The notes: generated by a model not told the origin, from the letters alone. Shown: positions 7,203-10,909, numbered from the stretch's first letter. The stretch is DNA of 11,198 bases from a virus (IMGVR_UViG_2734482782_000002:1-11198); one strand, 5' to 3'. Program-made: numbers and translations.

Positions 7203-7491
7203 GGCTGACCTCCTGCCCGAAAGCCAGGGCATCTTCCAATTCATTAGCGGCATAAATCAGGGCGTTGTGATGCGCGCGAAAACCACCATCAAGTTCGCGA
7301 GCAGCTCTGTCGCGCAAGATGTCGATCGCAGCCTGATAGTCATTCTGGTAATCGGCCGAACTGGCCGGCAGCTCCGCCAGCACCATCAACATGTTTTCCG
7401 GGTCGATGGGAATGGTGGCGAGCCCGAGCTCTTTGGCCTCCGCTGCTAAACGGGTCCAGCGTTCAATAATTCCAGTGGTACCTTTTTTCAT
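7192..7491 (-). CDS. hypothetical phage early protein (99 aa)
   Basis: ORF with GAGG upstream of ATG 7491. Its stop overlaps the xis start by 11 nt (translational coupling). Function not recognised. Confidence 0.6.
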   Translation of the reverse strand: MKKGTTGIIERWTRLAAEAKELGLATIPIDPENMLMVLAELPASSADYQNDYQAAIDILRDRAARELDGGFRAHHNALIYAANELEDALAFGQEVSHES

Positions 7492-7499
7492 GGCATACC

Positions 7500-7595
7500 T
7501 CAGAAACCTATCAAAAATTTATACTCAATCAGCGCGCCGAAAACGACGGCCACCAGCAATAGGCCAAACAGCATAGAGAGGAAGAAATACTTCAT
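7500..7595 (-). CDS. 31-aa hydrophobic single-helix peptide (MKYFFLSMLFGLLLVAVVFGALIEYKFLIGF)
   Basis: Not in the ORF track (too short); translated by hand from the minus strand. Its ATG overlaps the TGA of the upstream gene (ATGA at 7592-7595), GAGG lies 7 nt upstream, and it fills the gap between two flanking genes exactly. Predicted single transmembrane helix. Confidence 0.45.
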   Translation of the reverse strand: MKYFFLSMLFGLLLVAVVFGALIEYKFLIGF

Positions 7596-7816
7596 CGTGA
7601 TGCCTCACGAAAAACAGCTCTGTATGCACGCAGCATGTCCCGTGACTTGCCGGATAAAACTGTCCTCAGGAAGAACATCCCGCTACGGGTTGCCACGATG
7701 CCGGGTGTGTGTAGCAGCGTGAAATCTACCACTCTGCTATGTTTTCGGAACTCAAACAGAGTGCTTGTGATAACGATGTTCGCCACGGCGCCATAGTCCT
7801 GATGTTGAATTTTCAT
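7592..7816 (-). CDS. hypothetical phage early protein (74 aa)
   Basis: ATGA start/stop overlap with the upstream gene at 7813-7816; AAGGA 6 nt upstream of the ATG. Confidence 0.55.
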   Translation of the reverse strand: MKIQHQDYGAVANIVITSTLFEFRKHSRVVDFTLLHTPGIVATRSGMFFLRTVLSGKSRDMLRAYRAVFREASR

Positions 7817-8034
7817 TTTCTGTCCTTCAGTTTGCTGTATCGTTCATGGCTCATTACTTCCCAGTTCTGGCTGCCGTCTCGGGACAGCAGTCGCCAGCGG
7901 CGATTAACCCTCAGGCTCAGATTTCCGGAGCCGTGCATTCGGCAGGGATGAATTCGCTTGGCTCTGAACTGGCGGAGTACATGGACCGCCTGCAGGTGTA
8001 CCCACTCAGGTATTCGTATCGCTGTCAGGGCCAT
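7813..8034 (-). CDS. hypothetical basic protein (73 aa)
   Basis: ORF track 7813..8157. Preferred start is the internal ATG at 8034, preceded by AGGAGAGAAGGACA. The longer version would overlap the next gene extensively in another frame. Confidence 0.45.
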   Translation of the reverse strand: MALTAIRIPEWVHLQAVHVLRQFRAKRIHPCRMHGSGNLSLRVNRRWRLLSRDGSQNWEVMSHERYSKLKDRK

Positions 8035-8218
8035 TGTCCTTCTCTCCTGCAGGTGGGGTGATCGTGTAACCGGCGCGTTCAGCCATCCATAAAAAAGTCT
8101 CCAGCGATGCTGTAACCTCTCCGTTCTGAACCGGGCGCGCGTGGATAACTTTCCCATTCTCGATTGTCAGCACGATATTTACTGGTTCGTGCGTGATAAT
8201 TGGTGTCTGATCACTCAT
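8006..8218 (-). CDS. hypothetical phage early protein (70 aa)
   Basis: ORF track 8006..8275. Preferred start ATG 8218 (MSDQTPII...) with GGAGA 6 nt upstream, immediately after the stop of the upstream gene. Confidence 0.5.
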   Translation of the reverse strand: MSDQTPIITHEPVNIVLTIENGKVIHARPVQNGEVTASLETFLWMAERAGYTITPPAGEKDNGPDSDTNT

Positions 8219-8867: not shown

Positions 8868-9254
8868 TCATATGAAGTGCCTCACAGCCAAAGAGGCGAC
8901 AACCCTTCCGTGTATACGCATGTCTTTTTGCTCATCCGCATTAAGCGTGAAAGTTTGGTAATGTAGATTGTCAGAAATAATCTTCAGCGCCCCGTCCGGA
9001 AAGGGTTCTATTCGCTTGATGAACAGGCAGTTACGGCCAAAAACATCGACCGTAAAAACATAGATGCCGGGTGTAAAAGCGCGCCCTCCACAATCAACGA
9101 AAGCTACAACCTCACAGGGTTCGATAGTCGGCTGCATTGAATCACCTTCCATCCTGCAGCTCTTAACTCTGTTTCCAAAATCATTAATATTGTCAGAGCC
9201 GAACAGCATTTGTGGTGCTTTAATTGGCTCGTTAAAAGAAAGTGAATTTTGCAT
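8868..9254 (-). CDS. standalone S24 (LexA/UmuD-like) peptidase-domain protein without an HTH domain
   Basis: ORF track 8868..9260; start probably the ATG at 9254 (GAGGAA 8 nt upstream). Contains GDSMQPT (Ser nucleophile motif) and a downstream ...FIKRIEP... (Lys of the Ser/Lys dyad), spaced as in the LexA/UmuD/cI C-terminal fold. No N-terminal DNA-binding domain. Confidence 0.6.
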   Translation of the reverse strand: MQNSLSFNEPIKAPQMLFGSDNINDFGNRVKSCRMEGDSMQPTIEPCEVVAFVDCGGRAFTPGIYVFTVDVFGRNCLFIKRIEPFPDGALKIISDNLHYQTFTLNADEQKDMRIHGRVVASLAVRHFI

Positions 9255-9315
9255 TTTCATTTCCTCGGGGTGAATTTGGTCACACCATTTAAGGTGTTTT
9301 ATTAATTATTTTTAT

Positions 9316-9774: not shown

Positions 9775-9806
9775 TAAACAATACATAACGTATTAACAAG
9801 CGTCAA
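9775..9806 (-). promoter_or_regulatory. leftward early promoter (PL-like) with overlapping operator
   Basis: On the minus strand: TTGACG (-35, plus-strand 9801-9806), 17-nt spacer, TATTGT (-10, plus-strand 9778-9783). The 13-nt motif TACGTTATGTATT (plus-strand 9780-9792) overlaps the -10 and is identical to a motif in the cI-cro intergenic region. Confidence 0.5.
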
Positions 9807-9886
9807 TACAAAACGGATTAATCTGATGTATTAATTTTTATCTAGATGTTTATTAAGGCTTTTTTGTTCTATTTCGTGACGGAGGG

Positions 9887-9910
9887 AATAAAAAAAGCCG
9901 CTTTCGCGGC
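9887..9910 (-). terminator. rho-independent terminator downstream of the repressor gene
   Basis: On the minus strand GCCGC-GAAA-GCGGC followed by a run of seven T, starting 7 nt after the cI stop codon (9918-9920). Confidence 0.75.
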
Positions 9911-9917
9911 TTGTGCA

Positions 9918-10622
9918 CTATGGCAGGTTGGTTATTTTTGCATCGACCACGACGCCGATAATACGGCAATTACCATTTATGGGAATGATCGGGTATTGAG
10001 GGTTTAACGGCTTGAGGAATCGTTGACCAGCATCGATAACCAGCTTTTTGAAGGTGGCCTCGTTATCCCCATCGAGCTTAGCGACAACTAACTTTCCGTT
10101 GATGGGTTCAACCTGAGGATCGACCAGTATAACCATGCCTTCAGGAATGCTAAGCCCAGCTGGCGATGTCATCGAATCCCCTCTGACATCTAACCAGAAT
10201 GAATCTTCTGAACATTCCACGGTTGTATCATACCAGCGGTCGACCGCGCGCCTATGATATGGTTCTACTGCTTCCATCCAATCCCCTGCGCTGACCCAAC
10301 TGATTACGGGGTAGCGTCCTTTCGATTCATTCATGGCGTGAAATGACACATTGTGATCAGCTCTTGCGTCGCTCACTGCGCCGTCAGCGTCAACCACAAA
10401 ACCTGGCATTTGTAGAATTTTAAAAATTTTTGCTATGACCTCCAGGTTAGGTTCACGTCTTCCGTTCAGCCAATGGCCTAGCCCACCCTGTGTCATACCG
10501 AGTGCTTCAGCTAGCTGTTCTTGAGTCATTCCGACTTCTTTCATCCTGGATTTCGCCAGGTCCTGCCATCTCTGTTTCATAGACATGATTATTACAATCC
10601 GTATTTTTTGAGCAACTTCCAT
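9918..10622 (-). CDS. cI: prophage repressor, lambda cI-like (N-terminal XRE-type HTH plus C-terminal S24 autopeptidase domain)
   Basis: C-terminal ...GDSMTSPAGLSIPEGMVILVDP...ATFKKLV...FLKPLNPQYPIIP... closely resembles the lambda cI C-terminal domain as recalled. N-terminal ...MTQEQLAEALGMTQGGLGHWLNGRREP... is a helix-turn-helix. Start may be the ATG at 10622 (no SD, possibly leaderless) or the internal ATG near 10586. Confidence 0.9.
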   Translation of the reverse strand: MEVAQKIRIVIIMSMKQRWQDLAKSRMKEVGMTQEQLAEALGMTQGGLGHWLNGRREPNLEVIAKIFKILQMPGFVVDADGAVSDARADHNVSFHAMNESKGRYPVISWVSAGDWMEAVEPYHRRAVDRWYDTTVECSEDSFWLDVRGDSMTSPAGLSIPEGMVILVDPQVEPINGKLVVAKLDGDNEATFKKLVIDAGQRFLKPLNPQYPIIPINGNCRIIGVVVDAKITNLP

Positions 10623-10623
10623 T

Positions 10624-10668
10624 TTGTATTATTGTTTTATGTGTGTATAGTACGTTATGTATTATTTA
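10624..10668 (+). promoter_or_regulatory. rightward early promoter (PR-like) with operator, in the cI-cro intergenic region
   Basis: TTGTAT (10624-10629), 16-nt spacer, TATAGT (10646-10651), immediately followed by TACGTTATGTATT (10651-10663). Related ATGTATTA-type half-motifs recur in the region. Confidence 0.5.
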
Positions 10669-10684
10669 GATAGGAACTATCCGA

Positions 10685-10909
10685 ATGAGCGGTATTAAGA
10701 GCCTAAGGCTGAAAGCAAAAGTGACCCAGGGGGAGCTGGCAGCGTTGATCGCTAGCTCTCAAGGGGCCGTTAGCCACTACGAAACTGGTCGCCGAATCCC
10801 AGATATTGAAGTTGGGAAACGCATTGTGAGCGCCTTTAAGCAGCTCGGATATGAAACCAGTCTGGATGAGGTTTTTTCCGATGAACATACCGGAGAGCAA
10901 CTTCGATAA
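10685..10909 (+). CDS. cro: Cro-like HTH transcriptional regulator (XRE family)
   Basis: 74-aa ORF transcribed divergently from cI. HTH segment ...VTQGELAALIASSQGAVSHYETGRR.... AGGAA 8 nt upstream of the ATG. Confidence 0.8.
   Translation: MSGIKSLRLKAKVTQGELAALIASSQGAVSHYETGRRIPDIEVGKRIVSAFKQLGYETSLDEVFSDEHTGEQLR

Follow-up and report, generated by a model that had tools for sequence, protein, structure and literature searches.

A conserved 31-codon ORF in the putative early-left operon of a lambdoid prophage is predicted to encode a single-helix membrane peptide

Comparison of related prophage loci makes a solid case that a 31-codon open reading frame (ORF) in an 11,198-nucleotide stretch of viral DNA (IMGVR_UViG_2734482782_000002:1-11198, the whole of which is called the window here) is a genuine protein-coding gene under purifying selection. 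Its product is predicted to be a bitopic membrane peptide with a single helix, and the gene appears to belong to a repressor-controlled early-left transcript that would be silent in the lysogen. We see an about even chance, judged by analogy with known systems, that this microprotein modulates a host inner-membrane protein during lytic development.

Results

The small ORF shares its start and stop signals with the flanking genes

The small ORF reads on the minus strand, from an ATG at 7595..7593 to a TGA at 7502..7500 (Table 1); the first-pass annotation that drew attention to it had named no strand. The features which that annotation described, namely a hydrophobic 31-aa peptide between two genes, an ATGA overlap at its start and a stop located inside the Shine-Dalgarno sequence of the downstream gene, are all present. 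Specifically, the downstream GAGG occupies 7501..7498 and is separated by a 6-nt spacer from the ATG of the 99-aa gene at 7491. The length of the ORF means little, as 28 ORFs of at least 25 aa overlap the same 2.1-kb stretch and a 31-codon ORF is not above chance level by length alone; the small ORF is significant because it is conserved. In the window, the Shine-Dalgarno sequence of the small ORF also lies partly in a short hairpin (CGUGA-GGCA-UCACG, 7596-7609, minus strand) that would be opened by ribosomes ending the upstream gene. Relatives carry GGGAGG at this place and do not preserve the pairing.

Table 1. Features of the window around the small ORF and at the control region of the leftward operon.
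Feature	Position	Strand	Details
Small ORF	7500..7595	minus	31 codons plus stop; product MKYFFLSMLFGLLLVAVVFGALIEYKFLIGF; from ORF reading and homologues
ATGA overlap	7592..7595	minus	small ORF start and 74-aa gene stop; translational coupling junction; from the sequence
Shine-Dalgarno of small ORF	7603..7606	minus	GAGG, 7 nt before the ATG, within the 3' end of the upstream gene
TGAGG	7498..7502	minus	TGA of small ORF overlapping the GAGG Shine-Dalgarno of the 99-aa gene
74-aa gene	7592..7816	minus	phrog_1001; upstream neighbour, commonest but not obligate
99-aa gene	7192..7491	minus	phrog_36586; downstream neighbour
Excisionase	6993..7202	minus	phrog_2917; 69-aa form taken from relatives
Tyrosine integrase	5866..7038	minus	Arm-DNA-bind_2 and Phage_integrase; last gene of the leftward operon
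pL-like promoter	9775..9821	minus	TTGACG-17-TATTGT (9806..9778) with two operator-like copies
CI-type repressor	9918..10622	minus	HTH_3 and Peptidase_S24
Intrinsic-terminator-like hairpin	9912..9895	minus	after cI
Cro-like gene	10685..10909		divergent from the CI repressor

Substitution patterns argue for coding constraint

Constraint on the small ORF was measured in a set of 67 loci that were fetched solely through the neighbouring 74-aa gene. The small ORF lies directly downstream with an ATGA junction in 27 of these loci (ORFs were recognised by a match to GALIE, and very divergent or decayed copies would be missed). Among the 27 loci, one has lost the frame through a 7-nt duplication and another reads KFM where the others have KFL. 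Over these 27 loci, codons 2-29 of the small ORF have a pooled Nei-Gojobori dN/dS of 0.149, codons 2-19 one of 0.204 and the motif codons 20-29 one of 0.073; these are pooled pairwise estimates made from short alignments of related sequences. The 74-aa neighbour gene gives 0.106 in the same loci. Synonymous divergence of the small ORF in the neighbour-chosen set (pS) is 0.30-0.37, and the other frames have stops or higher dN/dS ratios. In the set that was selected by a motif pattern (see below), the claimed frame never contains a stop and second codon positions are the least variable, with a mean entropy of 0.19 versus 0.54 and 0.62 at the other two, a pattern that reads as a T-rich hydrophobic signature.

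The first-pass annotation had held the ORF to be a real small protein rather than a chance ORF, and had named synonymous-site variation incompatible with coding constraint as the observation that would count against it. Running this comparison gave purifying selection (dN/dS 0.15 with a pS of 0.32), and the claim is further backed by junctions that are kept across unrelated flanks. It is hardly credible, in our estimate, that the ORF gives no functional protein and is a chance ORF or a spacer that relays ribosomes to the next gene. Short ORFs do abound in the stretch, the NCBI PGAP pipeline does not call this one and many related phages are without it, but the peptide is conserved to a degree like that of the neighbour gene and a 9-residue motif is near-invariant across subfamilies. 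The frame is also intact in about 107 of 109 loci with a canonical start, in addition to which there is one frameshifted copy and one deletion fusion elsewhere. On these comparisons the non-functional reading appears largely refuted.

Two other uses of the same bases were considered and rejected. An RNA element is not indicated, as the fold z-scores are ordinary (-0.68 and -0.23) and Rfam has no match on the small ORF. An antisense ORF was rejected since the open antisense frame has no start upstream of or within it (the first GTG is at 7597) and its dN/dS is 0.39-0.77.

The small ORF appears to be a cassette with its own translation signals

Across 109 loci the ATG of the small ORF has GGGAGG, GAAGGA or GGGGTG 6-9 nt upstream, and the Shine-Dalgarno sequence stays at the same distance in relatives that have five different upstream genes. 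The stop of the upstream gene forms the 4-nt ATGA overlap in most of these loci and otherwise a 1-nt overlap or a gap of 1-11 nt. On the other side, the next gene starts between 4 nt before and 11 nt after the small ORF stop (108 of 109 loci). Conservation of the ORF and of its coupling signals in related prophages, a check that had been proposed at the outset, was thus borne out in that start, Shine-Dalgarno sequence, length and tight junctions are kept.

The genes on either side are much more varied than the ORF's own signals. Clustering of the flanking proteins gave five upstream and eight downstream families, with the excisionase itself among them. In the neighbour-chosen set every full-length 74-aa gene (61/61) ends in an ATGA overlap with the next gene, and the small ORF is absent from 40 of the 67 loci that have the 74-aa gene. 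In 35 of these 40 loci the 74-aa gene abuts, again via ATGA, genes that elsewhere follow the small ORF. Comparison of the loci thus points to a precise presence/absence cassette that behaves as an independent mobile module with no fixed partner, because it has these five upstream and eight downstream families, its own ribosome-binding site and a polycistronic setting. An obligate partnership with either neighbour was rejected on the same flanking families and ORF-less loci.

Several single loci show unusual arrangements at this position. On one contig the 74-aa protein and the small ORF are fused into a single 85-aa product (P0023); a Rosetta-stone link drawn from it was given no weight, as the fusion is a singleton that is one base from the normal ATGA. 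In locus L086 (IMG/VR 2751185945_000008) an in-frame deletion has joined residues 1-12 of the 74-aa gene product to the C-terminal half of the small ORF product (MKIQHQDYGAVAAVVFGALIEYKFLIGF), and in locus L226 a 7-nt duplication ends the small ORF early at codon 25. Finally, in locus L263 (IMG/VR 2744054454_000032) a different ORF of 60 aa with two hydrophobic stretches (MSPLKRAVFIFVLICAMGLFSALASGVQWGTPVAGIITAFTFFVATLVAGAVYENDMWGE) follows the 74-aa gene through ATGA, and fills the slot that the 31-aa ORF holds elsewhere.

The family is narrow and largely skipped by one annotation pipeline

About 120 homologous loci in Enterobacteriaceae prophages keep the frame (30-34 codons), the Shine-Dalgarno sequence and a near-invariant C-terminal motif, G-x-LIEYKFL. 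The motif search used a 14-base degenerate pattern for G-x-L-I-E-Y-K-F-L, which preselects the motif, and matched 103 IMG/VR viral contigs, nearly all of which have a family ORF of 28-34 codons. Together with other known loci this amounts to 111 motif matches and about 48 distinct peptides. The same pattern matched 88 times in 596 Gb of species-representative genomes versus about 50 matches expected by chance (a hand estimate). About 10 of the 88 have an ATG, a hydrophobic stretch and the 30-aa architecture, which the rest do not, and where an organism is listed these full-architecture matches are all from Enterobacteriaceae (Citrobacter, Pseudocitrobacter, Enterobacter, Trabulsiella). Among complete E. 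coli genomes the small ORF is rare (19 of 5426). Peptides identical to that of the window are encoded on 61 contigs, and its 90% cluster has 55 members, some of them named 'hypothetical protein' in GenBank/UniRef records of Enterobacter, Citrobacter and E. coli.

When 1.84 billion representatives were searched exhaustively with HMMER, only four 50%-identity clusters came back, all of the same family, and no distant or host homologues. A tblastn search of the peptide against a phage collection gave no match, which we attribute to the low-complexity filter; DNA searches found the homologues. As sampled in these collections the family appears compact and narrow, being confined to the temperate phages of Enterobacter, Citrobacter, Escherichia and related bacteria. 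Pfam, PHROG, NCBIfam and PADLOC gave no significant match to the peptide (best E values of 0.0092-0.13, to unrelated hydrophobic families below the cut-offs), nor did the PDB (best E 0.91). The sub-threshold matches to PsbX, Prli42, PhrA and colicin A were set aside as hydrophobic noise.

The ORF had been described as unannotated, which is true of relatives processed by NCBI PGAP for RefSeq: PGAP omits the ORF in three out of three RefSeq E. coli relatives, with an intact frame in the one that was checked. The description does not extend to phages LMessi and phi467, in which the homologues (MMKLFIFSIIVSLLLAATVIGALIEYKFLVR and MKSFLLSMLFSLLLASVVFGTLIEYKFLMNY, respectively) are annotated CDSs for hypothetical proteins, nor to GenBank/UniRef entries or to metagenome contigs, where gene callers do call the ORF. 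Similarly, the statement that the ORF falls below typical ORF-calling thresholds is right for PGAP and wrong for Prodigal-type callers.

A literature search for the motif returned no paper text, no experimental work on the family and one supplementary table only. That table (Table S2 of Fesenko et al., 'The Cryptic Bacterial Microproteome', bioRxiv 2024; PMC11188072) lists a member of the family in the Entero67K cluster 'Citrobacter_76875'. The listed peptide, MKPFLLSMLFGLLLVAVVFGALIEYKFLMNY, is 84% identical to the window peptide, and the table holds at least one entry for the family. The entry is a catalogue record for which the rows covered give no prophage context, function or experiment, and the study also inferred purifying selection computationally (PMC11188072). 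Thus the existence of the family is already on the computational record.

The peptide is predicted to cross the membrane once

The C-terminal motif of the window peptide is G20-A-L-I-E-Y-K-F-L28. In the family alignment M1, L13, G20, L22, E24, Y25, K26, F27 and L28 are invariant, and K2, L14, V18 and I23 are nearly invariant. The prediction of a single transmembrane helix made in the first-pass annotation holds across the family: the best 19-residue Kyte-Doolittle mean is 2.18-2.92 in 20 of 20 variants, and AlphaFold2 models one helix over residues 2-30 (pLDDT 96). On the biological scale the summed free energy comes out negative for 18 of the 20 variants. The hydrophobic run is uninterrupted to I23 (21 residues), with a core of about 20 residues from F4 to I23. 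Charge is +1 to +3 on the N-terminal flank and -2 to 0 on the C-terminal tail in all 20 variants. Given the positive-inside rule and this N-positive, C-neutral or acidic bias, the predicted topology is N-in/C-out, with a cytoplasmic Met-Lys N-terminus and the EYKFL tail at the periplasmic face. The small-xxx-small motifs S7xxxG11 and A16xxxG20 are kept in both subfamilies, and would suit helix-helix packing.

The predictor columns given for the family entry in the Entero67K table read 'nonTM' for TMHMM, 'SIGNAL_PEPTIDE' for Phobius and nonSignal for a second signal-peptide predictor. The Phobius call raises the alternative that residues 1-20 form a Sec signal peptide that is cleaved after V18-x-G20, with release of a 10-14-residue ALIEYKFL... 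cargo to the periplasm. V18 and G20 are conserved (nearly invariant and invariant, respectively) and fit the -3/-1 rule, and the segment after G20 is the most constrained part of the peptide. However, the hydrophobic run extends across the proposed cleavage site as far as I23 and a polar c-region is lacking, and the second predictor in the table disagrees. A signal that carries specificity would be expected to differ from phage to phage, which the motif does not, and the small ORF is not accompanied by any candidate receptor gene. We consider cleavage very improbable. We likewise treat as a long shot that the ORF encodes a secreted pre-peptide which serves as an effector or signal on induction or, less radically, an uncleaved effector of a new Kil-type or exclusion-type class that acts on a conserved inner-membrane machine; if the former is true, phages of Gram-negative hosts would encode a secreted peptide with such a function.

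The small ORF lies in a putative leftward operon with operator-like repeats at its promoter-like site

The window contains the left end of a lambdoid prophage. The leftward string is close-packed and runs from small genes through a ParE_like gene, the 74-aa gene, the 31-aa ORF and the 99-aa gene to xis and int. Operator-like repeats (TAATACGTTATGTATTG / TAATCCGTTTTGTATTG) are present at 9775-9821 and, inverted, in the cI-cro intergenic region at 10618-10668. The small ORF is about 2.2 kb inside the operon, and the sole promoter-like site is the one among the operator-like repeats, as consensus scans found no promoter-like or terminator-like site on the minus strand between 9778 and the small ORF and none on the plus strand near it. 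These promoter and operator assignments come from consensus scans in which the match counts equal those in shuffled sequence. We infer that the pL-like promoter is the start of a leftward early operon that contains the small ORF. Expression in the lytic phase is the likely consequence because the promoter region has operator-like repeats in common with the cI-cro region.

Other genes of the leftward operon are also of interest. The ParE_like toxin-domain gene (73 aa, 7813-8034, minus strand; Pfam PF24732, E 1.4e-18) is preceded and overlapped by a 70-aa gene of phrog_340 (8006-8218, minus strand), and together they may form a toxin-antitoxin pair that sits in the early-left operon two genes before the small ORF. 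A 130-aa protein encoded at 8868-9260 on the minus strand belongs to phrog_6201 ('CI-like repressor'). Peptidase_S24 is its only domain, with no HTH detected, and it lies in the leftward operon separate from the true CI (9918-10622).

Downstream of the operon, about 130 bases beyond the integrase stop, is the 3' end of tmRNA/ssrA (...GTTCAACTCCCGCCAGCTCCACCA; 5707-5739, minus strand), which is also recognised by a partial match to Rfam RF00023 (5707-5773, E 2.6e-7). The ssrA 3' end is the attachment site of the prophage, next to ypjA, which is the position of CP4-57 in E. coli K-12. Beyond the tmRNA end lies host DNA with a ypjA/EhaD-like autotransporter (AIDA repeats plus a beta-domain fragment) on the plus strand at 2157-5546. 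It is divided among three ORFs (2157-3149, 3089-5191 and 5220-5546) that correspond to one 4575-nt gene in a related E. coli record. The split may reflect a pseudogene or sequencing frameshifts.

The position of the small ORF in the operon bears on whether it encodes a superinfection-exclusion or defence factor, one that would be expressed constitutively in the lysogen and block the entry of incoming phage DNA at the inner membrane. Small inner-membrane proteins such as T4 Imm and HK97 gp15 exclude superinfecting phages in this way, and the predicted periplasm-facing conserved tail of the small ORF product would suit such a role. T4 Imm and HK97 gp15 are likewise small and act at the inner membrane or periplasm, but they are longer than the small ORF product and unrelated to it in sequence, and HK97 gp15 is expressed from the prophage whereas the small ORF appears to be repressed in the lysogen. 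A further precedent is DicB, which blocks lambda entry through ManYZ (PMC6832061). Against constitutive expression stands the depth of the ORF in an operon whose sole promoter-like site lies among operator-like repeats. The ORF is also closely joined to both of its neighbours, and it has neither an internal promoter-like site upstream of it nor a PADLOC match. We regard an exclusion factor made in the lysogen as rather improbable. A lysogen-expressed moron is disfavoured by the same consensus scans, which are weak evidence and found no flanking promoter-like or terminator-like site.

The same setting bears on whether the peptide is a membrane-damaging toxin of the type I, holin or viroporin kind, which would oligomerise and depolarise or permeabilise the inner membrane without a specific partner, and so contribute to the shut-off of the host, to abortive killing or to the timing of lysis. 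In size, in hydrophobicity and in having one helix it resembles Ibs, TisB, Ldr and Fst (PMC12648545), its small-xxx-small motifs could equally drive self-association, and its likely repression in the lysogen fits a harmful product. However, it is found in a polycistronic operon with an ATGA junction and not as a stand-alone unit with an antisense RNA, there is no nearby plus-strand promoter or terminator, no Rfam match and no unusual RNA fold, and the ordinary synonymous divergence means that no overlapping RNA constraint is visible. The ORF is also far from any lysis cassette. Finally, it is the polar and aromatic EYKFL motif (dN/dS 0.07), and not hydrophobicity in general, that is most strongly constrained, which points to a specific contact. 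A damaging toxin thus seems unlikely to us.

Membership in two known toxin and lysis classes was also assessed. The type I toxins Ibs, TisB, Ldr, Hok and Fst are similar in length, hydrophobicity and single helix, and some are prophage-associated (PMC12648545), but the small ORF has no antisense RNA gene, no independent transcription unit of its own and no family match; type I membership was rejected on the first two of these. Assignment as a holin or other lysis-cassette protein was rejected as well, since in the window and in the relatives examined the ORF sits between the ParE-like and 74-aa genes and xis-int.

Discussion

We favour the reading in which the small ORF encodes a modulator of a host inner-membrane protein. 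The peptide would be translated by coupling or re-initiation from a polycistronic leftward early transcript that probably starts at the promoter with operator-like repeats and ends with xis and int. Because this promoter region shares its repeats with cI-cro, synthesis of the peptide would follow induction or infection, and a quiescent lysogen would not make it. The helix and juxtamembrane motif could then bind a host inner-membrane protein that is conserved in Enterobacteriaceae, with a component of the divisome or of envelope synthesis, or a DNA-entry or transport channel, as conceivable targets. Such binding might alter the activity of the target in lytic development, as an accessory function in the style of Kil, DicB, SidA or AcrZ, and exclusion during lytic growth would be one form of it. 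The binding step is proposed by analogy only, because the peptide has no homology to characterised proteins. The small ORF is itself dispensable in many related phages, as its absence from 40 of 67 loci indicates.

Small membrane proteins that have been studied are often regulators of transporters, kinases, cell division or phage entry. Small single-helix proteins of this sort are systematically missed by standard annotation, as with PGAP, which skips the small ORF in the RefSeq relatives examined. A compact, strongly constrained family among host-takeover genes is a clean and inexpensive candidate in the search for new contacts between phage and host at the inner membrane, and its near-invariant EYKFL motif offers a handle for mutagenesis. 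In kind the ORF is ordinary, being one more phage small membrane protein. Large surveys of small genes in phages and enterobacteria predict thousands like it, and its value lies in being a well-documented test case, not in surprise.

Among known systems, one group for comparison comes from repressed prophage operons and consists of small proteins that modulate the host or are lytic, for example DicB and YdfD (PMC6832061, PMC8835842, PMC10448788). The genes for DicB (62 aa) and YdfD (63 aa) of Qin and for lambda Kil lie, as the small ORF appears to, in an operon that is under repressor control and reads in the direction of int. These accessory genes are dispensable, and on derepression their products target division of the host cell, synthesis of its envelope or the entry of phages. 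They differ in having no homology to the small ORF, and DicB and Kil are not transmembrane peptides.

The second group is the single-pass microproteins that act by binding larger membrane proteins, with AcrZ-AcrB, MgtS-MgtA, MgrB-PhoQ and SidA-FtsW as known pairs. Single-pass regulatory microproteins and type I toxins, some of them prophage-associated, have been reviewed together (PMC12648545). AcrZ, MgtS, MgrB and SidA have no sequence similarity to the small ORF, which differs also in being phage-borne and located in an early operon. They have about 30-50 residues, one transmembrane helix and no enzymatic domain, as does the small ORF product, and small-xxx-small motifs with a conserved juxtamembrane segment are found both in AcrZ-type microproteins and in the peptide described here.
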